A DNA stretch of 64,000 nt from a virus (IMGVR_UViG_3300037067_003630:6495-70494), one strand, 5' to 3'. Positions 9,202-51,303 are shown, counted from the first letter of the stretch. The notes: generated by a model not told the origin, from the letters alone. Numbers and translations: made by a program.

Positions 9202-9930
9202 CTATAGCCTCCATTTCCACGGATATTTTATTTCTTCCGGTACTTTCAAATCCAAAATTGCGCTTTCCAATGTCCATGGAATCCCATACCGTGTCAGTCC
9301 AATCAATTCCTGCAGCTGCTCAGCTGTGTCCACACCGACAACAACATAATCAATATACGGGTTGCCATATGTGAATAAAAATACCGCCTCTTTTCGGTTG
9401 ATTCCGTATGGCTTGATAATGCCGTCCAACCGTTCAATATATTCCTTGCCGATCGGCGGTTCATCCATAAGTAAAAGCCCTTGTAAAAACACGGATCGGG
9501 CAATGGTAGTTATTTTATATTCCTTTGCCAGCTTGAAAAACTTTGTTTTCAAAATATTGTGGTCGAACGCATTATACGGAAATTCAATTATGTTCATTTT
9601 CAGTTTTGCGGCCTTGACTGCCTCTTCCGGAGTATCAACCGAAACGCCATCCCAATCGCTGTCGTTAATCCTGCTGAATCCGTGTGCCAACTCCTGGCAA
9701 CTTCGGTAGTGAAAATAATCCTGAAATTCATTTATTTGCTTGATGAACTTTACAGGGTATGCGGTTGTATCTTCATACGCCGTTGAGGTGTCGATAAGGT
9801 GAATCCCATTGTCAATTGCTGTATGCAGTATTTTTATTCCTTCATCCCGTGGCACCTGACTTTTGCACTTCACACCATACGGCTGATAAAAATTTGCTAC
9901 GCCGAGAATCAGCTTTGTCTTGATAGCCAT
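9202..9930 (-). CDS. Aldo/keto reductase
   Basis: LILGVANF...YG, IDTSTAY, GVSVDTPEE, IARSVFLQGLL and VVGVDTAEQLQE motifs. Confidence 0.85.
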   Translation of the reverse strand: MAIKTKLILGVANFYQPYGVKCKSQVPRDEGIKILHTAIDNGIHLIDTSTAYEDTTAYPVKFIKQINEFQDYFHYRSCQELAHGFSRINDSDWDGVSVDTPEEAVKAAKLKMNIIEFPYNAFDHNILKTKFFKLAKEYKITTIARSVFLQGLLLMDEPPIGKEYIERLDGIIKPYGINRKEAVFLFTYGNPYIDYVVVGVDTAEQLQELIGLTRYGIPWTLESAILDLKVPEEIKYPWKWRL

Positions 9931-10583
9931 TTTAAAACATCCTCCATCAAAAATATTTTGCCAGGTTTATATAAAGCCTTATAAATCTGTGTGATAAATT
10001 CGTAATCCTGTTGTGTATCAAGCGTCCAGCGCAAACTAGACAAATCTTGCCCTTGCACTATAGCGAGAACTTTAAACCCGCTCCACAAAAAAAAGATATC
10101 ATATTCCTTTTCAAAAAAGTTTATCTTATAGAAATCAGGTTGTTTTAATAACCCCGCCTTGAAAACCTCCACGTCCAATCCATCCGGAAATCTTCGTCCG
10201 ATGCAGTTTGTTGTCAAATCATTATTTCCGTGATGTGAAATTATCATATCTATCAAATCCGGACAAACTAAGGCGCAATCACCTGTGATGCGGACAATTG
10301 AATCATTATTCCTTATATTATAATACTCGATAGCTTTAATGTATCTATTTTTTACATCATCCTCTGAGCCACGGAAGCAATTTATTTGTATCTGCCTGCA
10401 TAATGATTCTATTACATCGTTTTCCGGATTTGTGCTGGTGACAACTATTATCTTGTCAACCGTTTTGGCAAATCTCACGCGGTCAATTATATGTGCCAAA
10501 ACAGGTTTGCCGCATATCGGCAATAAAACTTTGCCGGGCAAACGTTGGCTTCCCATACGAGCTTGAATGAAACAATACTTCAT
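9909..10583 (-). CDS. SpsF-like acylneuraminate/nonulosonate cytidylyltransferase family protein
   Basis: IQARMGSQRLPGKVL, FRGSEDDV, VRITGDC, FPDGLDVEVF and RWTLDT motifs. Confidence 0.88.
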   Translation of the reverse strand: MKYCFIQARMGSQRLPGKVLLPICGKPVLAHIIDRVRFAKTVDKIIVVTSTNPENDVIESLCRQIQINCFRGSEDDVKNRYIKAIEYYNIRNNDSIVRITGDCALVCPDLIDMIISHHGNNDLTTNCIGRRFPDGLDVEVFKAGLLKQPDFYKINFFEKEYDIFFLWSGFKVLAIVQGQDLSSLRWTLDTQQDYEFITQIYKALYKPGKIFLMEDVLKWLSRQS

Positions 10584-12250: not shown

Positions 12251-12449
12251 TTTGAGCGACACCGAACTTCTGGACATGATGGATGTGCCGGAAGAAAAAC
12301 TTGAAGAAAGTGTATCTTCCAGAGTAATCAACCCGCCGGAATTGGCAGGTTTTAGCGGCGAAATGACAGATATTGTTATGGGCATCTTCGAAGAGCGCCA
12401 CGGAGAAGAGCATGCCTATCAACTATGGATGGAGCGGTTCGGAGGGTAG
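12234..12449 (+). CDS. Small acidic hypothetical protein
   Basis: AAGGAG SD; overlaps the previous stop. Confidence 0.55.
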   Translation: MKKLNDLSDTELLDMMDVPEEKLEESVSSRVINPPELAGFSGEMTDIVMGIFEERHGEEHAYQLWMERFGG

Positions 12450-12450
12450 A

Positions 12451-13863
12451 ATGAACTTTAAAACCGCTCTACTCCCACATCAACAATCGGCATATGATAA
12501 GCTCCGGTGCCTTAAGATTGGTGCCTTATATATGGATATGGGTACTGGCAAAACAAGAACGGCGTTGGAAATCATTGCGCTACGGCTTGATGCTGGCAAA
12601 ATAAATCACATCCTATGGCTCTGTCCATGCTCCGTAAAACCAACAATCAAGGCAGAGCTACAGAAGCATATTGACGGCGATTTGTCTATGTTCACTATCG
12701 AAGGCATAGAAAGCATGTCGCAGTCTGACAGGCTGTATTTGCGGTTGCTTGATTTGGTGGCTAATCAAAAGGTGTTTTTAATTGTTGATGAAAGTAACCT
12801 CGTTAAGAATCATTTTGCGAAACGCACAAAAAGGATATCGGCGCTAGCAAAGTCTTGCGCTTACAGGCTTATTTTGAACGGTACGCCGGTCAGCAAGAAT
12901 GAAGCGGATTTATTTGCACAGTGGTACATTTTAGATGAGCGCATATTGGGCTATCACTCTTTCTGGAGCTTTGCAGCGAATCATCTTGAATATGACGATT
13001 ACGGCAAAGTCAGGCGCGTTCTGAATGTGGATTATCTCACTGAAAAAATATCGCCGTACTCATACGGTGTGAAGAAGGAGGAGTGTATTGTACTACCACG
13101 CAAGCGTTATCGCGAACGTGATTTTGCGTTGACGGAAGAACAGGAATACGCATATTATGACGCAAAGGAAAAGCTGCTGGCTAATGTTGACGAGTTTGAC
13201 AGCACGACAATATACAAGCTTTTTACCGGGCTACAGCAGGTCACAAGCGGGCGCGCAATAGTTAGCATATATCCGCTTAAAAGTATACCGTTTTTCGATA
13301 ATCCGCTTGACAATCCGCGCATTAATGCCCTATTGCGAGAGGTTGACGATGTGGAAGAAAAAATCATAATCTGGTGCAAATTCAAGCATGAGATAGACGA
13401 TGTAACGGCGGTATTGCGGGACAGATACGGAGTGGACAGCGTGGCGCAGTTTTACGGCGGCATAAGTCAGAAAAGCCGCATTGCTGAAATGGAAAGGTTC
13501 AGAAACAATGCTCAGTATCTGATAGCGCACAAGGTCTGTGGTGGCTACGGTCTTAACCTGCAATTTTGCTCACGCATGATATATTATAACAATGACTTTA
13601 ACTGGGCGACAAGGGCGCAGTCAGAGGACAGAGTTCACAGGTTGGGACAGACTAAAGAGGTAATTATCGTTGACATATGCGCCGCAAGTAAAATTGATGA
13701 CAGGATTATTAATAACCTTAACTGCAAAGGCGTTCTATGTGACAGATTCAAGGATGAACTCAGGAAGAACAGGGATAACAAGGCGGCATTATCCGCCTGG
13801 ATAGATGGAGGTAGGCATGATAAAAATAGGGCTGAACCAGAGGGAGAAGCAGAGGGAAATTGA
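12451..13863 (+). CDS. SNF2-family (SF2) helicase/ATPase
   Basis: DMGTGKT (motif I), IVDES (II), LNGTP (III), GGYGLNLQ (V) and QSEDRVHRLGQ (VI). Confidence 0.9.
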   Translation: MNFKTALLPHQQSAYDKLRCLKIGALYMDMGTGKTRTALEIIALRLDAGKINHILWLCPCSVKPTIKAELQKHIDGDLSMFTIEGIESMSQSDRLYLRLLDLVANQKVFLIVDESNLVKNHFAKRTKRISALAKSCAYRLILNGTPVSKNEADLFAQWYILDERILGYHSFWSFAANHLEYDDYGKVRRVLNVDYLTEKISPYSYGVKKEECIVLPRKRYRERDFALTEEQEYAYYDAKEKLLANVDEFDSTTIYKLFTGLQQVTSGRAIVSIYPLKSIPFFDNPLDNPRINALLREVDDVEEKIIIWCKFKHEIDDVTAVLRDRYGVDSVAQFYGGISQKSRIAEMERFRNNAQYLIAHKVCGGYGLNLQFCSRMIYYNNDFNWATRAQSEDRVHRLGQTKEVIIVDICAASKIDDRIINNLNCKGVLCDRFKDELRKNRDNKAALSAWIDGGRHDKNRAEPEGEAEGN

Positions 13864-14683: not shown

Positions 14684-15776
14684 AAATGTACTTGAAGCGG
14701 CCAGAGAACGTATGAAGTATATTTTTGATGAGTTTGGGAATATATGCGTAAGTGTAAGCGGCGGCAAGGACAGTACTGTTTTGGCTCATCTGGCATTGCA
14801 GGAGGCGAACCGAAGAGGGCGGAAGATAGGTATATTTTTTCTGGATGAAGAAGTCGTTTATGAAAGCACGGTAAAACAGATAAAATATATAATGGACATG
14901 TATCCTGAAAACGCCGTCAAGCTGTGGTTTCAAATTGAATTTAACCTCACCAACTCCACATCAATCAAGGATGGACAGTTGAAATGTTGGGAGCGCGGCA
15001 AGCACGAGATATGGATGCGGCCAAAAGAACCGGACAGCATACAATATAAACCGTGGGACAGGGCGAATGAAACGGTCAGGGACAAAAACAAGGGCTTCGG
15101 ATTCTATGACGCGCTGGACAACTTCCAGAACTCCCGGCGGAACACAGCTTTTCTTGTCGGCCTGAGAGCCACAGAAAGTCCTAACAGGTGGCGGGCGGTA
15201 TCAAAGAATCCGGGATACAAAGACGTTTGCTGGTGCACAAAAGGCCATAATTGCAATGTTAATTTTTATCCTCTGTATGACTGGAATTTCCATGATATCT
15301 GGAAGTACATATATGACGAACAGTTGAAGTACAGCAAGATATACGATTACCAGTACAAGAAGGGCATGGGACTACAGGAAATAAGGGTATCCAGTCTGAT
15401 ACATGAAAAATCATTTAAGGCTCTGGTGGAGTTGCCGGAGTTTGAACCCAAAACATATGACAAGCTACAGAGGCGGATTGGCGGGATAGCAGTAGGTCAT
15501 ATCTATGGCAAGGAAAACAAGATGCTCCGTGCCCGGACGTTACCGAAGAATTTCAAAAGCTGGCGGGGGTACCGGGACTTCCTGCTGGAAACTTATCCGG
15601 ACGCCAGCAAAAAAGATATTTTTGTTAAGCGTTATGTCCGATACCTGGATAACAATTATGTCGCTCGCCAGGAATGCCGGCAACTTATCCTAAATGATTA
15701 CGAGAATAACCTTCCTGTGGATAATAAACCAGATCCACGGGAGGAAACAATTAAGAAATGGAGAGAATTATTATGA
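14658..15776 (+). CDS. PAPS-reductase-like PP-loop protein (IbrA/DUF3440-like)
   Basis: SVSGGKDS PP-loop, FFLDEE, VGLRATES..R, YPLYDW...DIW and RVSSLIHE motifs. Confidence 0.87.
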   Translation: MLNQVYINKNVLEAARERMKYIFDEFGNICVSVSGGKDSTVLAHLALQEANRRGRKIGIFFLDEEVVYESTVKQIKYIMDMYPENAVKLWFQIEFNLTNSTSIKDGQLKCWERGKHEIWMRPKEPDSIQYKPWDRANETVRDKNKGFGFYDALDNFQNSRRNTAFLVGLRATESPNRWRAVSKNPGYKDVCWCTKGHNCNVNFYPLYDWNFHDIWKYIYDEQLKYSKIYDYQYKKGMGLQEIRVSSLIHEKSFKALVELPEFEPKTYDKLQRRIGGIAVGHIYGKENKMLRARTLPKNFKSWRGYRDFLLETYPDASKKDIFVKRYVRYLDNNYVARQECRQLILNDYENNLPVDNKPDPREETIKKWRELL

Positions 15777-31263: not shown

Positions 31264-31382
31264 TGGGAAAGGTGAGAGTCGAACTCACAATACCTGTTTC
31301 CCTTGGTCTAGCAAATACGCACAATCGTCATTGTGTAGTTTGCTATTCCGCACCAGTGCGTTACCAATTTCGCTACTTCCCC
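31264..31382 (-). ncRNA. tRNA-like RNA with a 38-nt hairpin inserted in the anticodon loop
   Basis: Acceptor GGGGAAG/CTTTCCC+A, D arm GCG-AAATTGGTAA-CGC, T arm GTGAG-TTCGACT-CTCAC. The anticodon region carries TAGCAAA..CACAAT-GACG-ATTGTG..TTTGCTA. No encoded CCA. Confidence 0.7.
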
Positions 31383-31875: not shown

Positions 31876-31975
31876 TGGACGGAGCAGGATTTGAACCTGC
31901 ACGATTGCCTACTCTTTCGTTCGGAACTTTCACCGGATTAAGATTCCGGCGCGGCTACCATTTCGCCATCCGTCC
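31876..31975 (-). tRNA. Atypical tRNA: anticodon CTT (Lys) on a Leu/Ser-type body with a long variable region
   Basis: Acceptor GGACGGA/TCCGTCC+A, D loop GCGAAATGGTAGCCGC, anticodon stem CCGGA-ATCTTAA-TCCGG, ~30-nt variable region, T arm GCAGG-TTCAAAT-CCTGC. No encoded CCA. Confidence 0.6.
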
Positions 31976-35274: not shown

Positions 35275-36300
35275 ATGAAACTCCCGAACGGATATGGCAC
35301 CATATATCGATTACCCGGAAACCGCAGAAGGCCTTACATGACTCGCAAGACTATCGGCAAAACAGATACTGGAAAGCCGATTTATGAAACGATAGGGTAC
35401 TTTGAAGACAAGGAACTGGCGTTGAATGCGTTAGTAAAAAGTCACACAGAACCCATAATACCAAAAGCAGATATAACCCTAAAAGATTTATATGATGAAT
35501 GGTATCCCGATAAATATGAGTATATTTCAAAGCAAACAGAGGATTGCTATAGAGCTGCATGGAATCGCTTATCTGTATATGGCAAGGTCGAATTTAAAGA
35601 ACTAAGGACAGGTCACATTCAATCGGTCGTCAATAAGTGTCATAAGGAAGGCAAAAGCATTTCAACTATAAAAAATATTAAAATATTGGCTTCAATGCTT
35701 TACGATTATGCCCTGCAAAATGATGTGGTCAATAAAAATTATGCTGAATTTGTCAGACTTCCTAAAGTTGAAAAAGAAGAAAAAGAAATATTTACCGACT
35801 TAGAAATACAGAAACTAGAAAAGGCAGAGGGCGAACCATGGGTTGATACAATACTCATACTGATATATACAGGGTTGAGGATAAATGAACTTTTAAGTCT
35901 TACAAAATTCAGTATAAACTTTGAAAACCAAACAATAACCGGAGGACTTAAAACCGAAGCTGGTAAGAACAGGATAATACCCATACACCCAAAGATATTA
36001 AAATATATAAAAACATGGTATGACAAAAATGGTGAATATCTTATATGCAATGAAAAAGGCAAGCATTTGTCGGACAGGGTATACCGTGATACGCTTTACC
36101 TTCCGGCACTTGATGCCCATGGGGTGAGAAAACTTAATCCTCATAGTTGCCGTCATACCTGCGCCAGCTTATTGGCGAAAGCCGGAGCCGACACTCTATA
36201 TATTCAGAGGATACTCGGTCATGCTAAGTATTCTTTTACTGCCGACACTTATACTCGCACCGATATTGAGGAACTCAGGAAAGCCATTTTGAAAATTTGA
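35275..36300 (+). CDS. int: Tyrosine recombinase (phage integrase)
   Basis: MKLPNGYG arm-binding N-terminus; YTGLRINELL (R), K, HSCRH (HxxR), LGH and catalytic Y in TADTYT. Confidence 0.95.
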   Translation: MKLPNGYGTIYRLPGNRRRPYMTRKTIGKTDTGKPIYETIGYFEDKELALNALVKSHTEPIIPKADITLKDLYDEWYPDKYEYISKQTEDCYRAAWNRLSVYGKVEFKELRTGHIQSVVNKCHKEGKSISTIKNIKILASMLYDYALQNDVVNKNYAEFVRLPKVEKEEKEIFTDLEIQKLEKAEGEPWVDTILILIYTGLRINELLSLTKFSINFENQTITGGLKTEAGKNRIIPIHPKILKYIKTWYDKNGEYLICNEKGKHLSDRVYRDTLYLPALDAHGVRKLNPHSCRHTCASLLAKAGADTLYIQRILGHAKYSFTADTYTRTDIEELRKAILKI

Positions 36301-36314: not shown

Positions 36315-36542
36315 TTGTTAGTAATTTGTTAGTAACGGAAACGATTTGCCATAGCTTACCGATACTTACTTATTGCCCATCTATTTTAATTAGATATTAA
36401 AAAGCCGCTCAATCCTTACAGACAAGCGGTTTTTCCTTGGTGAGCCATTGCGGATTCGAACCGCAGACACCTTGATTAAAAGTCAAGTGACGGATGGCTA
36501 TTTTAATGGAGTCAAAGGGTGCTTTGTTAGTTTTTTGTTAGT
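36315..36542. repeat. Integrase arm-type sites: TTGTTAGT tandem pairs flanking attP
   Basis: TTGTTAGT at 36315 and 36326, and at 36524 and 36535; 11-bp period on each side of the core. Confidence 0.65.
36438..36489 (-). other. attP core: 3' part of tRNA-Lys(UUU)
   Basis: Minus strand CACTTGA-CTTTTAA-TCAAG-GTGTC-TGCGG-TTCGAAT-CCGCA-ATGGCTC-ACCA. No D arm or 5' acceptor strand upstream; 138 bp after int. Confidence 0.88.
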
Positions 36543-36939
36543 TTTTGTGATTTGATAAGTCCTCTTGCACATCCCAGAAGACTATACAGGTTTTTAAGGG
36601 TCAATTTCCCCGTTATATTGTTAATTTCACTTAATGCTTTATCATAAGTAAATTCTTGGGATTCCGATTTTGGGTTACTCGTTAAGTTCGCCATTTATCA
36701 TTCTCCCTTTACTATTTATTCCCGCCGCCATCCGTACAAGCCATATTATATACTTTATGTCTACCTATTTCAACAAAATCGTTCGACAAACTGTGCGTTA
36801 TTTTGCATTATTTTGTCGGAATTTGCCGAATTAGAACGGCATGGGTACAAAATAGGACGATGGGACTAGAAGGCGGGTATGGGGGTATTGCATAGTGAAA
36901 AATTATGTTATATGATGGTAGCAAAATGGAGGTGTTTGC

Positions 36940-40350: not shown

Positions 40351-40902
40351 TCATATACAAATTCGCACTGGTAAAGTTTTACTTATCAGTGCTTGTACTT
40401 CGTTCATTTTTGCCTTTGTCAACTTACCTGCAATGCCGTCAGCCTCCAACCCAAACGCCTTCTGAAATTCCTTGACTGTCATTTCCAGCGGATTTTCCGG
40501 TCGTTTGCCTTTGAGTAAATCGGCTGTGGTAAGCCCCCCGGTCCATTGAAAATGAGGACGGTCTACAAAGGGTACAAGCTTTCCGTTCTTTCTGACCTTA
40601 AAATCTCCGCCCCAAGTTAAACCGAGCTTTTTGCCAATTGCTGCAGCTTTTTTGTAATCCACATTGTGCGGGAATGAACAGTCCCAAGCCAGGCCATAGT
40701 TGTGCATGGAATAGCCAGCTTTTGTGTAGCTCAATATCGCTCCCGGCTTTGTCCTGCCAATAGCGTATATATCGGTTTGCTCCTGCATGGTGCGCAGTGT
40801 GCTGGTGATAACAGGTTCCAGCCCTTTCGCCCTGCATTCTGCGGTAAACTTTTCCGCAAGGTACTTGACATACGGGTGCAGGTCGTTTAGATTTTTACTC
40901 AA
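40351..40902 (-). CDS. Endolysin, M15 (L-Ala-D-Glu peptidase-like) with C-terminal peptidoglycan-binding motif
   Basis: LRTMQEQ..IYAIGRT, SMHNYGLAWD, LTWGGDF, DRPHFQ and FQKAFGLEADGIAG motifs. Confidence 0.88.
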   Translation of the reverse strand: MSKNLNDLHPYVKYLAEKFTAECRAKGLEPVITSTLRTMQEQTDIYAIGRTKPGAILSYTKAGYSMHNYGLAWDCSFPHNVDYKKAAAIGKKLGLTWGGDFKVRKNGKLVPFVDRPHFQWTGGLTTADLLKGKRPENPLEMTVKEFQKAFGLEADGIAGKLTKAKMNEVQALISKTLPVRICI

Positions 40903-41152
40903 CTTGTTCTACCTCCTTCTTCTCTAAATCGTCTATCCGGTGATTTGCCACTTTCATTTTTTCGTCGAACACTTCGCACCGTTCCTCAAGCCTATACGTT
41001 CGCTCAATAAGGTTGTTGTGCCTGTTAACTTTGTTTTCCAATTGCTCAAGCCGATAGGCAATCAGCGCCGTACTTCTCCGTTGTGCGAAAAAGCTTCCCG
41101 ATAATGTGCCTGCAAAGGCAATTAACGCTACTATAATGCTGCCTATTTCCAT
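40895..41152 (-). CDS. Holin/XhlA-like lysis membrane protein
   Basis: N-terminal TM then LIAYRLEQLENKVNRHNNLIERTYRLE. Confidence 0.7.
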   Translation of the reverse strand: MEIGSIIVALIAFAGTLSGSFFAQRRSTALIAYRLEQLENKVNRHNNLIERTYRLEERCEVFDEKMKVANHRIDDLEKKEVEQVE

Positions 41153-41371
41153 CTTGCACCGCCCTTCTTTTTATGTAATAATATAAAGACCTTCCTTTGT
41201 CAGCACCGCCGACACTGGAAGGCAGTAAAAAGCCGGTTGGTGTTTGCGCACCTTCCGGCCTTTTGGGTTCTGCGGGTTATTTATTTATGTTTCACAGTTG
41301 CCTTGCATACAAGCCATTTTACACCGTGTATCGAAAGCCCTATTGCAACGCCTACCAAGAATGATTTCATA

Positions 41372-41734
41372 TCAATTCACCTCATTTTCCACAGCAAGGT
41401 ATGTGTGACCGGTCGGAAAGTATATCACTGCCTTATCGTCCAGCAACCCTTTATCCTGTAAAAACTGGACTATTGTTTCCGCGCTGTCACCGTCTTTGAT
41501 GGGACGGTAAACATTGATTGAAGTCTGTCCTAAAAGATTTTCGTGGTCGTTGATAGTGCAGTACATTGCTATACAGGTATTGATGCTGCGTATGCTTGTG
41601 GTATCGCTTGCTATTTTAATCTGGTCTTGTGCACCCTCCATTTTGGGTATAGTGATTAAACCGATGATACCGATGATTGAAACGACGCAAACGAGCTCTA
41701 AAATTGTAAATCCTTTCTTGCTTTTCTTTAACAT
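41372..41734 (-). CDS. Type IV pilin-like protein (prepilin N-terminal cleavage/methylation motif), copy 3
   Basis: MLKKSKKG^FTILELVCVVSIIGIIGLITIP: basic leader, G/F cleavage site, E5, hydrophobic helix. Confidence 0.88.
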   Translation of the reverse strand: MLKKSKKGFTILELVCVVSIIGIIGLITIPKMEGAQDQIKIASDTTSIRSINTCIAMYCTINDHENLLGQTSINVYRPIKDGDSAETIVQFLQDKGLLDDKAVIYFPTGHTYLAVENEVN

Positions 41735-41767
41735 ATAACTTCCTCCTAAATAATATTTGATGCTGTA

Positions 41768-41828
41768 AGTATAACACTAAATGTAACATAAAGTCAATAT
41801 TGATTTGTGTTATATTTTGTGATATACT
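41768..41828. promoter_or_regulatory. Back-to-back sigma-A promoters (pilin 3 leftward, RHH gene rightward)
   Basis: Minus: TTGACT-18-TATACT (41797-41768). Plus: TTGATT-17-TATACT (41800-41828). TATAACA/TGTAACA/TGTTATA repeats overlap both. Confidence 0.6.
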
Positions 41829-41853
41829 ATTATCAAAGGAGGTGATATAAAAT

Positions 41854-42045
41854 ATGTTTACTATGGATGATAAATTTATTGTTAAACCTAACACAACCGA
41901 ATCAACCACTCTCACTATCCGCATTGATAAAGATGTTATTGCAAGGTTTGACGATTTGGCAATCAAGTCAGGCCATTCCCGTAATTCGCTCATTAACATG
42001 GCACTTCATTATGCCTTGGAAAATCTTAAGTTTGAGGGCAAGTAA
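41854..42045 (+). CDS. Ribbon-helix-helix (CopG-like) regulator
   Basis: TTLTIRIDKDVIARFDDLAIKSGHSRNSLINMALHYAL. Confidence 0.8.
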   Translation: MFTMDDKFIVKPNTTESTTLTIRIDKDVIARFDDLAIKSGHSRNSLINMALHYALENLKFEGK

Positions 42046-42077
42046 ACAATTTAAAGCACACAGGAGGCGATTATATT

Positions 42078-42401
42078 TTGTGTATCGTTTACCGTCACTT
42101 AAACAACCAAGGTGAAGTTATTTATGTTGGTCAAACTAATAGCTTGTATACGAGGCAAGAAGGCCACAAAAATGGTCTTTCTCATATATCAGAGGAACAT
42201 CGAAATAGTATTGCAAAAATTGAGCAGTTTGAAACAACCTCGCAGGCTGATTCCGATTTATTAGAAATTTACTATATCAACAAATATCAGCCGAAATACA
42301 ATAAATCTTGGAAACATGAAAAACCTATGTCTCTTACGATAACCCATCCATTCATATGGGAAGAATATATTCCAAGAATCAAAAGACACAAAAATCATTA
42401 A
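42078..42401 (+). CDS. GIY-YIG nuclease
   Basis: IVYRHLNNQGEVIYVGQT...R...LEIYYINKYQPKYN. Confidence 0.8.
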   Translation: MCIVYRHLNNQGEVIYVGQTNSLYTRQEGHKNGLSHISEEHRNSIAKIEQFETTSQADSDLLEIYYINKYQPKYNKSWKHEKPMSLTITHPFIWEEYIPRIKRHKNH

Positions 42402-42431
42402 CTGAATACATTGCAAAGAAAAGAGCGCCGA

Positions 42432-42722
42432 TTAAAGCGCTCTTACCATTTCTATTATCCACCAGCTGTGACTTAACACAATAATCCCTTCCCCAATCAG
42501 CGCCATCCGCAAGAGCCGTTTGTACCTGTCTTTCTTGCGGAATATCAGCCAGAAGGGTATCAGTATAACCGCCATCATAACCAGTCTCGCCAACAGACTC
42601 CACCCGAATGGCAAGTTGAATAGCCACGCCATAAGCGAGTTAGCTTCATAAGCATACTGTGCGGTTACTGATATATAGGTTAGTACAAAGTCTGTAAGCA
42701 TGAGGATAATTAATACTGGCAT
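42432..42722 (-). CDS. DUF5658-like small integral membrane protein
   Basis: LTDFVLTYISV...YEANSLMAWLF; three hydrophobic segments; directly downstream of the long pilin. Confidence 0.6.
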   Translation of the reverse strand: MPVLIILMLTDFVLTYISVTAQYAYEANSLMAWLFNLPFGWSLLARLVMMAVILIPFWLIFRKKDRYKRLLRMALIGEGIIVLSHSWWIIEMVRAL

Positions 42723-42731
42723 GTTGCCTCC

Positions 42732-43754
42732 TTAATTAGCAACTATTGTTACTGCGCCATATGGTGCAATATATCCACCATACCAAGGCGTTCCGGTATT
42801 TTGTGCTGGAATAGTAATGGTATATGTCCATGTATTGGAATCTTTTGTTAAGGTAAATATTGCTGTTTTGCTAGCACTGGTATCTCTCGATGTTATATGT
42901 ATTTGGCTATTACCAGGACCACCTATATGAATATCCCCACTGACAACTGCAAATGTATATGTATCGTCCGGCCTGTTTATCTTTGGCAATAAATCTGTTG
43001 CAGTTTCTCCATAGGTGGTGCTAAAACTCAACGAAGGTGCCGGTAATGCTATTGCTGGAAATACTGCAGTAACTACTCCTGAATTAATGGGATTTGTTGC
43101 AGTCGCTCCGGATACAGTAAAGGAATTCGCGGTTACACCTGCAAATGTAAAACCAGATTTTACAGTAAGGGTAATAGTTGCTGTATAGGTTTTGCCTGCG
43201 ATAAAATGGCTATCAGCAGGTGCCCAAGATACACTACCGGTATATTGTGCAGTCTCTGGGATGGATGTTACCGGTGTTGCATCAGCTACAGGCGGGATTA
43301 CGCCAGAGATTGCGAGTAAGGTTACTACGCCGCTCGGCGTTGATGTAGATTGTTCTTGTACTGTTACGTCACCATTTGTACCAACATCAATATCATAATG
43401 GCTGGCAGGAACTTGTAAATCCCGGCCATTCAACGATACCAAGGGGTCAATTGCAGCCTCTATTTCAGGCTCTGTATATGTGTGTCCATCCCCATTTGTC
43501 CATCCGGTAGGTGTTAAATTGCCATTCTCATCCAGCACAAGTGCCGCAGGATTGATTGGAGCTTTTAAATCACCTGAGGCAATCGCCATTTCAAGTGACC
43601 TAGCTACAACATGAGCCGCTTCCTTATCAGCCGCCCTTCTCGCTGCATCAGTAAAACCGCCTAATCTTGGAACTGCAATTATCGCAAGTATGCCAAGTAT
43701 TGCTATAACAACTATCAATTCTATAAGGGTAAAGCCTTTTTTATTCTTAAACAT
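42732..43754 (-). CDS. Type IV pilin with C-terminal Ig-like/adhesin-like extension, copy 2
   Basis: MFKNKKG^FTLIELIVVIAILGILAIIAVP followed by a Thr/Ser-rich beta domain (GVIPPVADATPVTSIPETAQYTGSVSW...). Confidence 0.9.
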   Translation of the reverse strand: MFKNKKGFTLIELIVVIAILGILAIIAVPRLGGFTDAARRAADKEAAHVVARSLEMAIASGDLKAPINPAALVLDENGNLTPTGWTNGDGHTYTEPEIEAAIDPLVSLNGRDLQVPASHYDIDVGTNGDVTVQEQSTSTPSGVVTLLAISGVIPPVADATPVTSIPETAQYTGSVSWAPADSHFIAGKTYTATITLTVKSGFTFAGVTANSFTVSGATATNPINSGVVTAVFPAIALPAPSLSFSTTYGETATDLLPKINRPDDTYTFAVVSGDIHIGGPGNSQIHITSRDTSASKTAIFTLTKDSNTWTYTITIPAQNTGTPWYGGYIAPYGAVTIVAN

Positions 43755-43768
43755 TTCGATATTCCTCC

Positions 43769-44188
43769 TTACTTTTTAATTTGGTAATCGTATGCCGGGC
43801 CAATTGGATTAGTTGATGTCAATGTTACAGTTACTTCGCCATTAGGCGCGATAACAATGTTTCCATCAACTATTGCTGCTCCACCGTATTTTGCAGAAGT
43901 CAAATCCAAATCCCTGTCAAGTATCAAATTTTCTGCTTTCAATGCGGTTATCAAGCCAGTTGTGCTTGTATCAAAAGTAAATGTTGAATCTGTCTGATGT
44001 TCTGCTACATATATAGCCGTTGCATTCGCAGTCACCGCAGCCGCTTCCTTATCTGTTGCTATTTTTGCATTCTCGCTAAACCCGCCTAAACGCGGCACTG
44101 CTATAATAGCCAGTATCCCCAAAATTGCGATAACCACGATGAGTTCTATCAGCGTGAACCCTTTCCTACCTCTTAACCTCTTAAACAT
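43769..44188 (-). CDS. Type IV pilin (major-pilin size), copy 1
   Basis: MFKRLRGRKG^FTLIELIVVIAILGILAIIAVP; GGAGG SD; 139 aa. Confidence 0.9.
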   Translation of the reverse strand: MFKRLRGRKGFTLIELIVVIAILGILAIIAVPRLGGFSENAKIATDKEAAAVTANATAIYVAEHQTDSTFTFDTSTTGLITALKAENLILDRDLDLTSAKYGGAAIVDGNIVIAPNGEVTVTLTSTNPIGPAYDYQIKK

Positions 44189-44234
44189 GGTACATCCTCC
44201 TAAAATTATTGTCAGGTTTTTCCCCTGCATATAG

Positions 44235-44243
44235 GTTATACCA
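44235..44243 (-). promoter_or_regulatory. Extended -10 promoter for the pilin operon
   Basis: Minus strand TGGTATAAC with AT-rich upstream tract, ~50 nt before the pilin 1 start. Confidence 0.5.
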
Positions 44244-44340
44244 TGCAAAATTATTCTTAGACACTTTTAAAAAAATATTTTTATTTTGTACGGCAATCTG
44301 CTATAATGTGATTGCGAACATACAAATTTTACTTTTCTTT

Positions 44341-44366
44341 AGTCCCCTCGTTGGAGGGGATTTTTG
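44341..44366. terminator. Intrinsic terminator ending the tail operon upstream of the pilins
   Basis: AGTCCCCTC-GTTG-GAGGGGATTTTTG, with a T-rich tract on the left flank. Confidence 0.7.
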
Positions 44367-44672: not shown

Positions 44673-45464
44673 TTAAGCCACCTCCACCATAATTATATCC
44701 CCGTCAATGTCAAAGACTATTTCGGGGCTTGTTGTACTACCGTTTACCAAGGGTTTGAGTTTTGTTTCTCTGTGGTCATTCTGATGATTGAATGCAAGGG
44801 TTGTTTTAGTTGAATTTGTATATATATCATAGTTTGAGGCATAAATAATAAATGGAGGAACTGATATCTCTCCACCTGTGTGTATCATTGTTTGCCATTG
44901 CCCATTATTAGTGAAAAGATATAAAGAATATATATTATAAGTATTTTCACTGACGTATACTTCCTTTTCAGTTGTAAAAAGAGCAGTGCCATAACCAGGA
45001 TATAAGAAAATAATTTGATATTTTTCACCTGGATACGTTGGCGGTGTATCGGGATAATACCGCCATGTCTGTATTTGTGTCTTGTGATAATGGCTTGATA
45101 TTTCGCCTGTCAAAACCGCTTCAATATTAACTTTTGTTACCAGACTTGCATGAGTGTGTGAGGTCAATTCTCCTGTCAGTACCGCCTCAATTTCAGCCTT
45201 TGTCATTGCTGGACTAGCCGCAACATGCCAACTTGTACCGCCATCACAGCTTATTTGCCCGAAACAATTCTGTTTTATCGCCGTACTGTTTGCTGTGACT
45301 GTTCCTGCGCCATAGTTGACAATAATAGAATCAGCGAATGTATATACCGCCGCCGCTGCCGGAAAGGTTAGCGTTATCGGCGTAGCAGAGGTACATTTTA
45401 TTATTGTGTCGAACAGGTCGATATCATCTAGGGTGACAGACGATGTGACTACTTTTTGCTTCAT
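44673..45464 (-). CDS. Tail fibre/receptor-binding-like protein
   Basis: Tandem repeat (I/N)EAVLTGE(L/I)(T/S)SH; tail-tip position. Confidence 0.65.
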   Translation of the reverse strand: MKQKVVTSSVTLDDIDLFDTIIKCTSATPITLTFPAAAAVYTFADSIIVNYGAGTVTANSTAIKQNCFGQISCDGGTSWHVAASPAMTKAEIEAVLTGELTSHTHASLVTKVNIEAVLTGEISSHYHKTQIQTWRYYPDTPPTYPGEKYQIIFLYPGYGTALFTTEKEVYVSENTYNIYSLYLFTNNGQWQTMIHTGGEISVPPFIIYASNYDIYTNSTKTTLAFNHQNDHRETKLKPLVNGSTTSPEIVFDIDGDIIMVEVA

Positions 45465-46825
45465 AAGTTTATCCTCCTGTTGCTTGCTCCGTCTTTCCAA
45501 TATGCCGCTTCTACTCTCTTACCCGTCAGCGTCCCCGCGTCCGTCGTTGTCTTTGCAAAAAATACCGTTGTCAGGCTTGAACTATCATACACATCTGCAT
45601 TAGCCTGCAATAGTGTCGTATATGAGTAGTTGTCTGCATCGCTAATGTATTCCCACACGCCCGTATTAAGCTGGTATAATTTGCCTACACTTGCTGATTT
45701 GACCTGCGTATCGCCTGAAAAGTTGTAGTACCATGGTGCGGAGTTGACAACAAGGCGAATGTTTGCCCCTGCTGAAAATATGACTTGATAGGGGTATAGC
45801 GAAGTCAAAACAGGCGAATCGGGGTAGGTTGTCCATGGCTGATAGTCGGGTGCGGATAGGGTCAGATATGAGGCGTCAAGGATGCGGGTGGGGGCTAATG
45901 TTAAACCTGTTTTAATTAGCCTTGAACTAGCCGTAGCATACAGAACATCGCCTAAGCAAACCATAGAATACGAATTATTTGTAAGCCCATATTCAGATGC
46001 TCCCACAATAATCCATGAATCTACATTATCGTATTTATACAGTGCTCCGCTTTGCCCTTCTACTCCGTATAACTCATTTTTACAAACAGTAAGAGAAAAC
46101 ATTTCGCCACTCGGTAAGGGATTTGAAATTACTTCTATCCAAGAAGAAGTACCATCCCATTTATATAGTTGCTTGCCAAGATTAATTGTTGCATATACGG
46201 TTCCATTGAATTCTGCCGCACTATTAACCCAATTGCTACCTTGAGCGGAAACAATTACTACCCATGTATATATTCCATCCCAAAACAAGATTTTCCCCTT
46301 GGTTGTAACTGCATAAATACTATTATTTTTTACAAATAGTAATTTTATTATATCTTGATATTCTATATAAGGAGCCATTTCTACAAATTCATTGTTAACT
46401 ACTTTTACCAAATATCCTACACTTAATGCTAAATAAATTTCGCTATTGTAAACTATCCCCGCCGTTATACTCTCTTCAAACCATCCTATGCTATTTACGT
46501 CAATCCAGCCATTTACCCCATCCCACTTTTTTAAATATGCAGAACTCATATATGTTTGCGAACCGTAAATAGCATTGTTGTATACCAAAATAGGTACAAC
46601 ATAATCGTAGTTTGGCGTGATTGCTATTTGTTCCCACGCATCTATACCGTTATATTTAAGTAGTCCGTAAATGTCCGTACCTGCGTGTATCTCTCCGTTT
46701 AACACTATCGAAATATTCGCAGGGATACTGTCTAATTGTGGTGCAGCCAACGACCACCCGTATGGAGCCGTATCCATCCTAAACGCCGCACACCCTCCCC
46801 TTGCCATCATTGCACTTGCACCCAT
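45461..46825 (-). CDS. Putative receptor-binding protein with a ~7-bladed beta-propeller
   Basis: About seven ~43-aa repeats of the type V.N..IY...G.L.KWDG...W. Confidence 0.7.
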   Translation of the reverse strand: MGASAMMARGGCAAFRMDTAPYGWSLAAPQLDSIPANISIVLNGEIHAGTDIYGLLKYNGIDAWEQIAITPNYDYVVPILVYNNAIYGSQTYMSSAYLKKWDGVNGWIDVNSIGWFEESITAGIVYNSEIYLALSVGYLVKVVNNEFVEMAPYIEYQDIIKLLFVKNNSIYAVTTKGKILFWDGIYTWVVIVSAQGSNWVNSAAEFNGTVYATINLGKQLYKWDGTSSWIEVISNPLPSGEMFSLTVCKNELYGVEGQSGALYKYDNVDSWIIVGASEYGLTNNSYSMVCLGDVLYATASSRLIKTGLTLAPTRILDASYLTLSAPDYQPWTTYPDSPVLTSLYPYQVIFSAGANIRLVVNSAPWYYNFSGDTQVKSASVGKLYQLNTGVWEYISDADNYSYTTLLQANADVYDSSSLTTVFFAKTTTDAGTLTGKRVEAAYWKDGASNRRINL

Positions 46826-48351
46826 CAGACCACCTCCCAAGCTGTTGTAACACCTGTGCGCACCGTGACACTCTCCTGTGGGTATAGGTATTTTGTCAAC
46901 GTACCGTCCGTCACCGTCACCATGCCGTTTGCTGCGTTTGCATTATGGATACAAAACATTACAATGCCATCGTGGTCTACTGCGCTGCCTGCAATGTTTT
47001 TATCTGTGGTAGGGTCGGGCAGGGTAATTATGGTTGTGCCGGTGACATTGACTTGCCTTGCGCTCGCCCAGGTGAGAGTTGTGGCGGTGGTTATGGCGCT
47101 GCCATCGTCTATAGTGGGGTCGTCGGTGTCAACTAAAACACTTTTAGCCTTTGCTCCTGCCGGCCAATCAATGTCCACATATAAATTTGTCTGTGTTATC
47201 GCGCCCGTGCTGTCGATATAGGTATTGCTGATTCCTCCGCTTTCTTTTGCCTTTGAGACTACCTTTTCTAAATACTCCATGCCCGTCTGGTTGCCCTGAG
47301 TAGAAAAATTGTCAGACTTTCTCACGGAGCATTGAAGGGTACAATGCAGGTTCTGGTTGCCGTTGTCCTGCAAGGTGACTTCTTCAATGAGGTAGTATGT
47401 ATCCGAGCTTATCCCGAATGTCGGTAGATTGACTTTCAGTTTTGTTCCGGCAATCCAGTCGAGCGTCCATGATTTGATTGTCAGTGTTCGGGGAATTATG
47501 CCGAACTTTTTCAGTGCATTTGTTGCCGCTGTTGTAGCATCTGCCAGGAGGTCAATATTGCCATCATTTATTACTGTGCCATATACGCCCGTGCCGCCCT
47601 CTATTGCCGCCCGTGCCGTCTGTTCTGTGGTGTCCTCCTCATACGTTTGTATTGCATACCCATCGTCGCCAATGCCGCCGCGGACAAATACCTTATTCGC
47701 ATATCCGTCGAGTGACTTTTCATACGATTCAATCTCAAAGTCGGTAAACGCGCCGCCCTCAACAATGTCATGCGCTGCGGCTACCTCTGCATCATCGGCA
47801 ACAAAGTATAATGCTTTGCTGTCGTCGATATACCATTTATATCCGGAGGCTGCCGCCATTTCGTTTAGGATTTCACCGCACGATTTGCACACCGCGTCAT
47901 ATTCACCATCGCCCACAGGGTCAGCTCCTGTGGAGATAGTGCCTGCCGTAATACCTTCTGAGCTTAATACGGGGGTATAGGGTGTTACCTGACTGGCTAT
48001 CAAGTCTGTTACAACATAGCCTGCCGATTTTTGGTCATAGGGGTTTGTTATTGTCCTCCTTGACGGTATACTGCCATAGCCATTTGAGGTGATACTGAGT
48101 TGTATCTTTTTTCCTGCGCCATATCCCGCCTCCAGCTTTTCATGCTGGATTGACTGAATAACGCCGCCGAATATGACTGTAGCGCCATCTAAAACTTGCA
48201 CATCCTGTCCCACATCCGGAAGGTATGCGGAGGTAGTGACAACGGAGAATGAGCAGTCGTTTTTGTGCCCTGTCCTGCGCGTGACAGATAAAGAGCCTGC
48301 TAATAACAGGCTCGTTTTATCTATTGTTGCAATTTTTAGTGTATATGCCAT
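46825..48351 (-). CDS. Tail tip/baseplate hub protein
   Basis: Follows the tape measure gene; GQDVQVLDGATVIFGGVI, GYKWYIDDSKALYF and YANKVFVRG. Confidence 0.7.
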   Translation of the reverse strand: MAYTLKIATIDKTSLLLAGSLSVTRRTGHKNDCSFSVVTTSAYLPDVGQDVQVLDGATVIFGGVIQSIQHEKLEAGYGAGKKIQLSITSNGYGSIPSRRTITNPYDQKSAGYVVTDLIASQVTPYTPVLSSEGITAGTISTGADPVGDGEYDAVCKSCGEILNEMAAASGYKWYIDDSKALYFVADDAEVAAAHDIVEGGAFTDFEIESYEKSLDGYANKVFVRGGIGDDGYAIQTYEEDTTEQTARAAIEGGTGVYGTVINDGNIDLLADATTAATNALKKFGIIPRTLTIKSWTLDWIAGTKLKVNLPTFGISSDTYYLIEEVTLQDNGNQNLHCTLQCSVRKSDNFSTQGNQTGMEYLEKVVSKAKESGGISNTYIDSTGAITQTNLYVDIDWPAGAKAKSVLVDTDDPTIDDGSAITTATTLTWASARQVNVTGTTIITLPDPTTDKNIAGSAVDHDGIVMFCIHNANAANGMVTVTDGTLTKYLYPQESVTVRTGVTTAWEVV

Positions 48352-48581: not shown

Positions 48582-50882
48582 CTAGAAGGCATATCCTGCC
48601 GCCCTCAATTTCTTTACTATCGTGTTGGCTATTGCCTCTGCATCGCCCTTGCTGCCGGTCACATTCAGGATAAGCTGCTTTTCAATGACTGTTTCCGCTT
48701 TCTGATTAGCCGTGAACATTTTGGAGGACTCGCCGCCGGCAATGGAATACTTCTGATTGTATAATTTTTGATATTCCTGTAACTGTGCGCCGGACATTTT
48801 AGCAAGAGCTTTGACGGAGTCCACAGAGCCTGCGCCCATGCTTCGGAGGTCACTGATTAAGTCTGCGCTTACGCCGCGCTTTTCAAGTGTAGCCAATGAG
48901 CTGCGCCATTCACCCATGGCTTTGACTTGCGCTTTTAGGCGGGTAAGCAACCTCTCTCCCGAGACTGATTTACGCTCAAACACATCAAACAATCCGACGA
49001 AATTTGCAAAGGCTGTGGTTTGCTGTTTTATAGCGTCAATCATTGACTTGATGCTGTTTCTAAAGGTATCAACACCTTTTTCCGCTGTGTCTGCGCTTTT
49101 CGTGATTTCCTCAAGAAGCTTCTTATAATCGGCTGCTGCTTTTTTAGCCTCTTCGGATCCTGCTGCTGCTCCGTCTAATATTTTAGGCAGTTTTACATCG
49201 CCCATTGCTTTTTGAATGGCATTGCTAAAATCCGTTCCGATGCTCTTGCCGTAGTCCGGATTTTTATTTATATAGTCTAGAGTGACTTCGGCTTGAGCGC
49301 CTACACCAAAATTCTTTTTGAATCTATCTGTGTATTCCTGTATTTTGGATTCGCTCATACTGATAGAACCGGCAGCAACGCCAGGTATTTTTTCCATCAG
49401 TTTTAGTATCGAATTAACAAAATTCAAATATTTGGTATATAATCCTGTCCAAAAGTTTGCCCACCACACCTCAAGAGGCAAAAAGGTTTTAGGTATATCC
49501 ACAGCAAGGAGTTTCCACCCTGCATCCATAGCGCCTCTGACATTCTCATCCGTGTTGTACAAATAGATAAGCCCTGCAACCAATCCGGCTATTGCGATAA
49601 TTACCAGTCCCGCCGGAGTCACCAAAAAACTGAGCATACTCATTAGTCCACTGATGCCTATTGCCACCTGTCCGGCTATTATCAGGAGCGGACCGAGAGC
49701 CGCAACTATACCAAACACGGCTGCAATAAAACCTTGAGTACTTGCAGGTAAGGCCAAAAACTTGTCAACCAAACCGACAACAAAATCGATAAACTTTTTA
49801 ATGGCCGGAATTACTCTATCCTCAACAATCTTTACTATCTTTTCCATCACAGGAAGAAATTTCACCGCAATATCTGAACCTAATTTTGCAAATATCTGCT
49901 TGATTTCGTCAAATTTATCACCCATTGCATCTAGTGCGTCAAGTTCAGTTTGTGACAATACTAAATTTAAATCTTTAGCCCGTTTGAGGTATTTATCCAT
50001 TTCATCGGCGTTGGCACGGATAAGAGGAATTAAATCTTGAAAACTTTTTCCGAATATCTTACTTGCAACTTCTGCCTGCAAGGTTTCGTCACTTATTCCA
50101 CCAAGTTTTTTAATTGTTTCGAAAAACGTCTCGTTTATAGGGCGTAATGTTCCATCAGTTTCTTTCAAACTTACTTTGAGTGCTGAGAATATTTTTGCCA
50201 TCTCGCTTTTTGAGTCGTTTGCGGTTGTAAGCGCACGTGTAAACTTGGAGAAACTACCCGTTATGGTTTCAAAGGAAACGTCAACCTGTGTTGCGGCATA
50301 CTTCAATTGCTGTAAATATTCTGTGCTCATGCCCGTTGTTACTGACAGAATATTTATACTTTCAGCATATTCAGCGGCTTTTGCCGTTAATGCCACCATT
50401 GCGGTTGTTGCTGCAACCATCGAGCCGGTCACATACATAGACATTGACCTGCCCATGGAAGTCATTTTTTCGCCCGCGGTTTTTAGTTGACCGCTTACTG
50501 CAGTAAGACCGTTTTTGAAGTTCTGTAGCGGTGTGAGACCGCCGCCGATTTCCTTATTGAGTTTGGCTTGCTGGATTTGCAGGTCAAGAAGCTTGTTTTT
50601 GTAAGTCATCGCTTCTTTTGACGCCGCGCCCTTTGCTGTCGTGACTTCCTGCATCTTCTTCTTGGTAATATCTATTTGTGCCGACAATGCCGCCTGAGTG
50701 CTTGAGTTGGCTTTTGCCTGTTGTGCCAATCCCTTTAAGCTGTTACTTGCTGCATTGTTTTTGACTTTCCATAATTCAAGTTCCTTGTTGATTGAGGCGG
50801 TTGCCTGTTTGGCAATATCTATGCCCTGTTTGTAACTGGATGCGTCAAGTATCAATTTTGAAACTAATGTTTTATCTGCCAA
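48582..50882 (-). CDS. Tail tape measure protein
   Basis: ~766 aa, Ala-rich helical, hydrophobic mid-region (GIVAALGPLLIIAG); TTG start after GAGGTG. Confidence 0.88.
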   Translation of the reverse strand: MADKTLVSKLILDASSYKQGIDIAKQATASINKELELWKVKNNAASNSLKGLAQQAKANSSTQAALSAQIDITKKKMQEVTTAKGAASKEAMTYKNKLLDLQIQQAKLNKEIGGGLTPLQNFKNGLTAVSGQLKTAGEKMTSMGRSMSMYVTGSMVAATTAMVALTAKAAEYAESINILSVTTGMSTEYLQQLKYAATQVDVSFETITGSFSKFTRALTTANDSKSEMAKIFSALKVSLKETDGTLRPINETFFETIKKLGGISDETLQAEVASKIFGKSFQDLIPLIRANADEMDKYLKRAKDLNLVLSQTELDALDAMGDKFDEIKQIFAKLGSDIAVKFLPVMEKIVKIVEDRVIPAIKKFIDFVVGLVDKFLALPASTQGFIAAVFGIVAALGPLLIIAGQVAIGISGLMSMLSFLVTPAGLVIIAIAGLVAGLIYLYNTDENVRGAMDAGWKLLAVDIPKTFLPLEVWWANFWTGLYTKYLNFVNSILKLMEKIPGVAAGSISMSESKIQEYTDRFKKNFGVGAQAEVTLDYINKNPDYGKSIGTDFSNAIQKAMGDVKLPKILDGAAAGSEEAKKAAADYKKLLEEITKSADTAEKGVDTFRNSIKSMIDAIKQQTTAFANFVGLFDVFERKSVSGERLLTRLKAQVKAMGEWRSSLATLEKRGVSADLISDLRSMGAGSVDSVKALAKMSGAQLQEYQKLYNQKYSIAGGESSKMFTANQKAETVIEKQLILNVTGSKGDAEAIANTIVKKLRAAGYAF

Positions 50883-50892
50883 TTTAACCACC

Positions 50893-51303
50893 TCACTTTT
50901 TAAAGGCACTTTCTATCCCATTGAATACAACTTCCTCTATCTTTTGATATGCCTCGTCTTTGGACTCATCGAAGGCAGGGCGAATCCAAGGACGGGCAGG
51001 TTCATGGGAAGATCCGTATTCCGAGAACTTGCCATAAAATGCCTTAGTTATATCACCTTTTGAAATACCCACTATCTGCGAATACACCCCGCTTTTGAGT
51101 TTGCGGACAGTGCCTATTTTTATATTTCGCTGCAATTCACCTGTTCTTTTATGTAGCACTGAATAAACCTTGCGTTTCATGGCATCTAGAACAGGCTTTG
51201 CACCTTCATTAAGCGCCTTTTTAAAAACTGTTTCGCCTTCCTTGCCCATGTTGTCGAGGGCGTCTATCATTTCCTGGAAGCCATCTGTTTCAAGTTCAAT
51301 CAT
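50893..51303 (-). CDS. HK97 gp10-like neck/tail-completion protein
   Basis: FYGKFSEYGSSHEPARPWIRPAFD. Confidence 0.85.
   Translation of the reverse strand: MIELETDGFQEMIDALDNMGKEGETVFKKALNEGAKPVLDAMKRKVYSVLHKRTGELQRNIKIGTVRKLKSGVYSQIVGISKGDITKAFYGKFSEYGSSHEPARPWIRPAFDESKDEAYQKIEEVVFNGIESAFKK

Follow-up and report, generated by a model that had tools for sequence, protein, structure and literature searches.

The closest described systems are homologues of type IV pilus subunits carried by phages of Pseudomonas and Xylella. The prophage-encoded protein P-FimU of F10-like phages enters the pili of Pseudomonas aeruginosa, leaves motility intact and blocks F10-like phages that bind the pilus tip (Sztanko et al., Cell Rep 2026, PMC12952977), the sensitivity to this exclusion being determined by a tail protein, PTP4 (PMC12952977). 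P-PilA genes, whose products are about 50% identical to host PilA, occur in Xylella fastidiosa prophages and in some Pseudomonas phages (PMC12952977). Here we analyse a 64,000-nucleotide stretch of viral DNA (IMGVR_UViG_3300037067_003630:6495-70494, hereafter the window, from whose first letter coordinates are counted unless another contig is named), in which three genes for type IV prepilins lie between the tail and lysis genes of an HK97-type temperate siphovirus. Tentatively, we favour the view that they form an accessory cassette feeding extra pilins into the pili of the host, most likely as a means of superinfection exclusion by replacement of receptor subunits.

Like P-FimU and P-PilA, the cassette belongs to a tailed phage bearing homologues of bacterial type IV pilus subunits and no machinery genes, and the approximately 50% identity of P-PilA to the host major pilin is comparable to the 48-55% identity found between pilin 3 of the window and first-slot pilins of Clostridia. 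Only one pilin is involved in the known cases, whereas the window encodes three, one of them modular with a surface domain, accompanied by a DUF5658 protein and an RHH regulator. P-FimU is a minor pilin of the pilus tip; the pilins of the window have N-termini of the major-pilin type. Finally, P-FimU was demonstrated by experiment whereas the role of the window cassette is predicted, and the relatives lie in pilus operons of a largely monoderm class, the Clostridia.

The original prediction knew of no characterisation of such a case for siphoviruses of Firmicutes. The principle is in fact published (P-FimU and P-PilA, PMC12952977) and a pilin family of morons exists in PHROGs, but the literature that we searched contained no report of phage-borne pilins for phages of monoderm hosts. 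What is new is a multi-pilin cassette with subunits of the major-pilin type, a modular pilin, recurrent DUF5658 and RHH partners and a tail domain travelling along with them.

Identification of three prepilins

The three prepilin genes are the following.

41372-41734, minus strand: pilin 1 (pilin B), 120 residues, leader MLKKSKKG followed by FTILE
42732-43754, minus strand: pilin 2, 340 residues, leader MFKNKKG followed by FTLIE
43769-44188, minus strand: pilin 3 (pilin A), 139 residues from an ATG behind an AGGAGG site, leader MFKRLRGRKG followed by FTLIE

For pilin 3 a mechanical list of open reading frames extends to a TTG at 44248, and the ATG behind the AGGAGG site was used. Read from the translations, all three proteins have Gly at -1, Phe at +1 and Glu at +5, preceded by a basic leader and followed by a hydrophobic helix. 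The initial proposal of three class III signal peptides between tail and lysis genes was borne out by the curated prepilin models, which all three proteins pass: pilins 1, 2 and 3 score 24.6, 36.9 and 36.2 bits with the Pfam N_methyl model (PF07963, cut-off 21.2) and 25.2, 33.9 and 36.4 bits with the NCBIfam model TIGR02532 (cut-off 16.3). All three also match the PHROGs family phrog_3433 annotated 'pilin' (moron, auxiliary and host takeover category), mostly over the N-terminal 60-70 residues and with E-values of 1e-8 to 1e-11. Little is shared with this family beyond the conserved helix; its function is an annotation label, and it carries no information about a cassette. Searching the INPHARED phage collection with pilins 2 and 3 (tblastn), PADLOC with every cassette protein, and PDB with the models of pilins 2 and 3 (Foldseek, E <= 0.001) returned no match.

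The whole contig of 70,494 bp consists of phage DNA with no host flank, and is an unintegrated, nearly complete phage genome. Searching it for A24 peptidase, T2SSE and T2SSF domains as markers of PilD, PilB and PilC gave no match, so that the lack of pilus machinery genes proposed for the window extends to the entire contig. Genuine prepilins in a temperate tailed phage without pilus machinery of its own imply that PilD, PilB and PilC of the host are required, as had been anticipated. The possibility that the segment is an assembly chimera was ruled out: pilin 2 is found letter-identical and with the same neighbours on one JGI contig and one ENA contig, and parts of the cassette have exact matches in contigs from two runs of separate studies, one on groundwater and one on landfill.

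Relationship of pilin 3 to first-slot pilins of Clostridia-type operons

Full-length relatives of pilin 3 were recovered at 48-57% identity by an exhaustive HMMER search. Those with retrievable genomic context are encoded in chromosomal pilus operons, where they occupy the first pilin slot, and the first slot after PilC is the usual place of the major pilin. Over the full length, pilin 3 is 51-55% identical to the first-slot pilin of locus L180, 48% to that of L196 and 51% to that of L199, the first 45 residues being almost alike. The chromosomal gene order is PilN, an SLH protein, PilB, PilT, PilC, in some instances a sigma factor, the first pilin, DUF7305, a minor pilin and an Ig-domain modular pilin, with PilD in one case; in L180 it reads PilT-like, PilC, pilin and, further on, PilD. 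Rnf and FolC-like genes are among the neighbours of these operons. In the operon closest to pilin 3, the named relatives of PilC come from Clostridiales, Anoxybacterium, Fonticella and Clostridium. On these alignments, pilin 3 is a homologue of the chromosomal pilins in the first-pilin slot of Clostridia-type operons. The phage copy differs from such operons in lacking the machinery, DUF7305 and the minor pilins with degenerate motifs, and in being located between tail and lysis genes. One relative, P0241, reaches 88% identity to pilin 3, and an exact look-up of this protein found it not on record.

The AlphaFold2 model of pilin 3 has a mean predicted local distance difference test score (pLDDT) of 89; residues 13-64 form its long alpha-1 helix, and the head is small and made of beta strands. 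Its best VIA-align matches are pilins and pseudopilins with Z-scores from 6.9 to 5.0, EpsG and Clostridioides difficile PilJ both being at 6.9. The minor pilin PilB of Streptococcus sanguinis (7b7p) gives a Z-score of 3.6, in a comparison made with the pilin 3 model only.

Modular organisation of pilin 2

The N-terminal 55 residues of pilin 2 are 67% identical to the chromosomal first-slot pilin of L180. In its model the helix is present, the head is of low confidence and the C-terminal part is poorly modelled, whereas residues from about 141 to 240 form an all-beta region with pLDDT values of 94-97, corresponding to a beta-sandwich repeat domain of about 90 residues. Hundreds of surface proteins, including another pilin (P0082), contain a match to this domain at 50-67% identity, and many of them also carry DUF1566, FGE-sulfatase, LCP or Big_2 domains. 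As modelled, pilin 2 is a modular pilin, associating an N-terminal module of the major-pilin type with a promiscuous surface beta-sandwich. A comparable grafting of a folded domain on the C-terminal side of a pilin module is seen in PilB and PilC of S. sanguinis (PMC8179133, PMC9934059); there the added domain is a vWA or a lectin domain, whereas pilin 2 has a beta-sandwich of about 90 residues, is encoded by a phage and uses a module of the major-pilin type. No relative was found by searching IMG/VR with pilin 2.

This architecture suggests adhesion by lysogenic conversion, in which pilin 2 would show its beta-sandwich on host pili and so confer on lysogens a new ability to bind a substrate, partner cells or a polymer. 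The succession of a pilin module and a confidently folded beta-sandwich argues for it, as do the occurrence of the domain in so many cell-surface proteins and the Ig-domain (Big_2, Big_4) modular pilins held by chromosomal operons that contain relatives of pilin 3; furthermore, modular pilins are established adhesins (PMC8179133). However, pilin 2 is absent from the other cassettes described below (L022, L194 and L025), and the beta-sandwich has no significant match among solved structures and no known ligand. We regard adhesion as rather unlikely to be the main benefit of the cassette, while noting that it is compatible with pilus remodelling.

Recurrence of the cassette in other phages

Three genes located inside the span were absent from the earlier listing.

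41854-42045, plus strand: RHH (CopG/Arc-like) regulator, Pfam RHH_1 25.6 bits, divergent from pilin 1
42078-42401, plus strand: GIY-YIG nuclease domain protein, 107 residues, downstream of the RHH gene
42432-42722, minus strand: DUF5658 small membrane protein, 96 residues, PF18902 49.4 bits, last gene of the pilin 3/pilin 2 unit

The order pilin A, DUF5658, RHH-like gene on the opposite strand and pilin B is the same in two other phage loci. The first, L022 (G045), is an IMG/VR phage of 55,321 bp (CheckV 100%) whose cassette lies between a tail endopeptidase and a holin, and the second, L194, is a fragment; the RHH-like gene has the same position and orientation in both. Compared with them, the window has pilin 2 and the GIY-YIG gene in addition. 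The latter also occurs in variants of the same phage (L016 and L017), whereas both L022 and L194 lack it. Aligned over its full length with the second pilins of these two loci, pilin 1 shows 53% identity in the case of L022 and 55% in that of L194, and it constitutes a separate pilin type seen thus far only in these phage loci. In the temperate phage L025, a pilin matching phrog_3433 follows the endolysin gene, close to the integrase and repressor; a DUF5658 gene (45% identity) lies alongside on the opposite strand, and then comes an integrase 60% identical to that of the window. Pilin 2 is missing from these three instances and hence does not belong to the conserved core. Conversely, in L019, a related prophage whose distal tail protein is 52% identical, the tail gene leads on to DUF5658, holin and endolysin genes, and no pilin motif was detected in the 15.5 kb examined. 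The lack of pilins in this matching post-tail stretch indicates that they are accessory.

Invariant residues of DUF5658, a small four-helix membrane protein, are D11, T15, E26, N28, H85 and W88, including an E-x-N motif. The gene adjoins pilins in L022, L194 and L025 as it does in the window. Of 40 loci with pilins, 39 on IMG/VR viral contigs and one on the metagenome contig L195, only L022 and L025 have it, and searching IMG/VR with single DUF5658 proteins recovered only the known locus. DUF5658 was detected in 15 of 300 sampled Clostridia genomes (5%); at the 14 loci that were fetched, no pilin motif was found within about 7 kb, and no lysis or tail genes were shared with the pilin-bearing phages (tblastn). 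We also observed that DUF5658 recurs in phages at the tail-lysis junction and that its clusters are largely viral. A general role of DUF5658 as a pilin partner was rejected, since these 14 loci as well as L019, which has two copies (12439-12768 and 15244-15537 of that locus), carry the gene without pilins.

A tail protein of the window also has a part in common with the pilin-bearing phages.

45461-46840, minus strand: 459-residue tail protein, of which about 130 C-terminal residues are common to tail proteins of L022 and L025

It is 57% and 35% identical to two parts of a 963-residue tail protein of L022, and 34% identical to the C-terminus of a 597-residue protein of L025. The window phage, L022 and L025 otherwise have few genes in common. 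Exclusion by P-FimU is tied to the tail protein PTP4, and the association of a tail-protein domain with the pilins in these phages would fit the P-FimU picture. This C-terminal domain is a candidate pilus-binding domain. A segment of the YPD(T/S)P...Y(Q)(I/V)IF type was noticed in both the 275-residue (44673-45500) and the 459-residue (45461-46840) tail proteins, so that the tail-end proteins of this phage may contain repeats of the module that they have in common with L022 and L025.

Pilin A, DUF5658, the divergent RHH gene and pilin B might together represent a self-contained and mobile pilus-remodelling system peculiar to the phages of Clostridia-like hosts, with DUF5658 as a dedicated membrane partner, perhaps steering, processing or favouring the phage pilins over those of the host, and with the tail domain as the pilus-binding receptor domain of the same phages. 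We consider this extended scheme unlikely. Were it correct, receptor use and receptor masking would be inherited together. DUF5658, a virus-associated family, gains a testable context from the cassette.

Alternatively, the pilins could be unselected cargo, host genes lately acquired through imprecise recombination and useless to the phage. The resemblance of pilin 3 and of the N-terminal module of pilin 2 to chromosomal first-slot pilins is what one would expect in that case. However, the reading frames are intact, a multi-gene arrangement is conserved in several otherwise unlike phages, pilin 1 is a phage-specific lineage with only 53-55% identity between phages, and the cassette is identical in two habitats. 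Cargo is therefore a highly improbable explanation.

Separately from these loci, some two dozen mostly large IMG/VR contigs (L029-L047 and L052-L057) encode prepilin-type proteins of about 320 residues with a LLPAVQ(S/Q)ARE signature, typical of the DUF1559-like proteins of Planctomycetota and Verrucomicrobiota; these may be true phage genes or host DNA in viral bins.

Transcription signals around the pilin genes

The following elements were located on either side of the pilin genes.

44341-44362: hairpin in the interval from the tail genes to pilin 3, resembling a terminator on the plus strand only
44232-44245, minus strand: putative promoter of pilin 3 read from the sequence, an extended -10-like element (TGgTATAAC) preceded by an AT-rich tract
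42421-42444, minus strand: terminator-like hairpin (-14.6 kcal/mol) followed by UUUCUUU, ending the pilin 3/pilin 2/DUF5658 unit
41768-41828: divergent promoter region with consensus matches TTGACT-18-TATACT + TG (minus strand, pilin 1) and TTGATT-17-TATACT + TG (plus strand, RHH)
41226-41264, minus strand: terminator-like hairpin followed by UUUUU (-20.1 kcal/mol, z -3.9), after the pilin 1 unit and before the lysis genes

The original prediction described the pilins as independent morons, insulated from the tail operon by a terminator at 44341-44366 and equipped with promoters of their own at 44235 and 41768-41797. The insulation did not survive inspection of the strands. The hairpin folds well on both of them, but a U-run 3' of the stem exists only on the plus strand, the stem being followed on the pilin strand by CUAAAGAAAAG. 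Such an element would keep antisense transcripts out of the tail genes and not late transcripts out of the pilins; being in the wrong direction, it leaves late read-through into pilins 3 and 2 possible. The promoter-like sites do exist, but as consensus matches they are predicted only; near pilin 3, a consensus scan found only a 9/12 site (44215-44187), and both divergent sites at pilin 1 fall in an inverted repeat (41767-41780 and 41804-41817). With these putative promoters and with downstream terminators bounding two units, independent morons are plausible for both units, although late transcripts may run on into pilins 3 and 2. A hydrophobic reading frame of 29 codons (41281-41370, minus strand), which begins 1 nucleotide past the pilin 1 stop and lies ahead of the terminator, was noted as candidate coding sequence.

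Because the coding strand has no terminator between the gene of the 93-residue virion protein and pilin 3, the pilins could be late lytic products rather than being expressed in the lysogen. Made with the tail genes, they might block pilus-mediated superinfection of the infected cell or prevent the loss of progeny on the pili of lysing cells. Their position directly behind the late operon and in the same orientation is in line with such a role, and PilA-like genes are also found in virulent Pseudomonas phages (PMC12952977). Against it, promoter-like sites precede pilins 3 and 1, the RHH gene is divergent from pilin 1, and the pilin of L025 lies past the lysis genes beside integrase and repressor, a typical moron position. 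A late lytic role is distinctly improbable. Type IV pilins are inserted in the membrane and cleaved by PilD. This is at odds with cytoplasmic virion assembly, which is much less likely still as a form of the late role.

Proposed role of the phage pilins

In the receptor-replacement reading that we tentatively favour, the prepilins would be expressed in the lysogen, enter the membrane and be cut and methylated by host PilD, after which host PilB and PilC would build them into the host pili. Of the three, pilin 3 would provide an alternative subunit of the major-pilin type, pilin 2 a shaft or tip subunit displaying the beta-sandwich domain, and pilin 1 a phage-specific subunit controlled by the small RHH regulator. 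Provided that pili are the receptor of these phages, the altered pilus surface would stop the adsorption of related pilus-binding phages, an effect demonstrated for P-FimU and suggested for P-PilA. The arguments in favour are the three prepilin sequences, the pilin fold predicted for pilin 3, its closest full-length relatives in the first-pilin slot at an identity similar to that of P-PilA with host PilA, the lack of machinery genes on the contig, the recurrence of cassette genes in other phages, the tail domain common to phages that have few other genes in common, the two units bounded by promoter-like sites and terminators, and the absence of pilins from L019.

Several points weigh against this reading. 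The structural matches of pilin 3 are moderate, with Z-scores below 8, and the surface domain of pilin 2 points to adhesion at least as much as to masking. The missing terminator on the coding strand between the tail genes and pilin 3 counts here as well. No RNA run was present among the sequencing runs listed as matching the stretch. The tail domain shared with L022 and L025 may be just a common structural module. Finally, the likeness of the phage pilins to those of the real host and the presence of pilus machinery in that host are presumptions of this reading.

Phage pilins could also act as dominant-negative subunits that poison elongation or retraction, so that pili, serving as phage receptor and in DNA uptake, would be switched off and not re-coated. 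This jamming was raised by the authors of the P-FimU study for truncated phage PilA proteins (PMC12952977), and the divergent, phage-specific pilin 1 under its own repressor-like regulator might be suited to it. Pilin 3, however, is full-length and well folded, with intact Glu at +5 and head, features that a functional subunit fits better, and two or three distinct conserved pilins are more than jamming needs. We judge it improbable.

If receptor-subunit replacement is correct, a mechanism thus far shown only for a tip pilin of Pseudomonas extends to another pilus architecture and another phylum. Compared with those of Proteobacteria, the type IV pili of largely monoderm bacteria, Clostridia among them, have received far less study, and to our knowledge hardly any of their pilus-dependent phages are known. 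The practical value would be modest unless the host is found.

Host of the phage

The integration site and the integrase of the phage are the following.

35275-36300, plus strand: integrase
36437-36490, minus-strand sense: attP, 3' half of tRNA-Lys(UUU), directly after the integrase

Phage genes lie on either side of the tRNA half, indicating an intact attP. In 4 of 401 sampled Clostridia genomes, the 3' half of a tRNA-Lys matches it with 2-3 mismatches. The named relatives of the portal protein are mostly Bacillota (Eubacteriales, Clostridium, Paenibacillus, Syntrophomonadaceae and others), with a few metagenome-assembled genomes of other phyla. The genome contig collection gave nothing with the single portal protein and, with the portal alignment, only relatives of at most 52% identity whose 10-kb flanks end short of their tail-lysis regions. 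The relatives of the pilins in Clostridia-type operons provide a third pointer to Clostridia. Portal relatives, pilin 3 relatives and the attP tRNA half thus agree with the Firmicute (Bacillota) host proposed at the outset, and judging from these comparisons the host probably comes from Clostridia.

The contig was placed in a genome bin of 1.69 Mb (175 contigs, 89.6% complete) that encodes PilB/PilT-like ATPases, PilC and GspG-like pilins. No A24 peptidase was found in the bin; as it is present in 39 of 40 relatives of the bin and the bin is 89.6% complete, this absence is likely a gap. The bin organism was considered as host and is unsupported. The tetranucleotide correlation of the phage with the bin is 0.87, compared with 0.97-0.99 for core contigs; a related portal occurs in none of the 40 relatives; the tRNA-Lys(UUU) of the bin and the attP half disagree at 14 of 45 positions; and its GspG-like pilins are unlike the phage pilins. 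The bin organism is probably not the host.

Two observations concern the integration site. Metagenome contigs with different flanks pile up at 36452-36659, reaching a depth of up to 130, where the phage itself has about 15; attB or junction forms could be among them, as could other elements that use this tRNA. A second fragment resembling the 3' half of tRNA-Lys, 83% identical to the attP one, is carried by a 3.8-kb contig of the bin (C133:3030-3082) and may be another phage piece using the same integration strategy.

Genome organisation of the phage

Upstream of the pilins and on the same strand are encoded the large terminase, portal, major head protein, adaptors, major tail protein, a chaperone, the tape measure and four tail-end proteins; downstream come the lysis genes.

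48582-50909: tape measure, upstream of the cassette
Upstream of the cassette: tail-end proteins, namely a 508-residue distal-tail-like protein, tail proteins of 459 and 275 residues and a 93-residue virion protein (phrog_20787)
40895-41152: XhlA-like gene, downstream of the cassette
40351-40902: M15 endolysin with a PG_binding_1 domain, downstream of the cassette
Downstream, on the lysis side: 57-residue protein with two transmembrane segments

The contig also encodes an antirepressor and an ERF recombinase. In the early region, two unusual tRNA-like elements (31264-31382 and 31876-31975, minus strand) score 45.1 and 54.8 bits with the Rfam tRNA model, above its gathering threshold; ARAGORN calls no tRNA in the window. 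The remainder of the contig contains sugar-modifying genes mixed with homing-endonuclease-like genes, and an HNH gene is located at the end opposite to the small terminase. More precisely, window positions 1-10583 together with C2:1-6494, upstream of the packaging genes, encode aminotransferases, methyltransferases, a deacetylase, an acyltransferase, a cytidylyltransferase and an epimerase among HNH-like and LAGLIDADG-like genes. It is conceivable that this run of sugar-nucleotide enzymes is linked to glycosylation of the pilins or of the virion.

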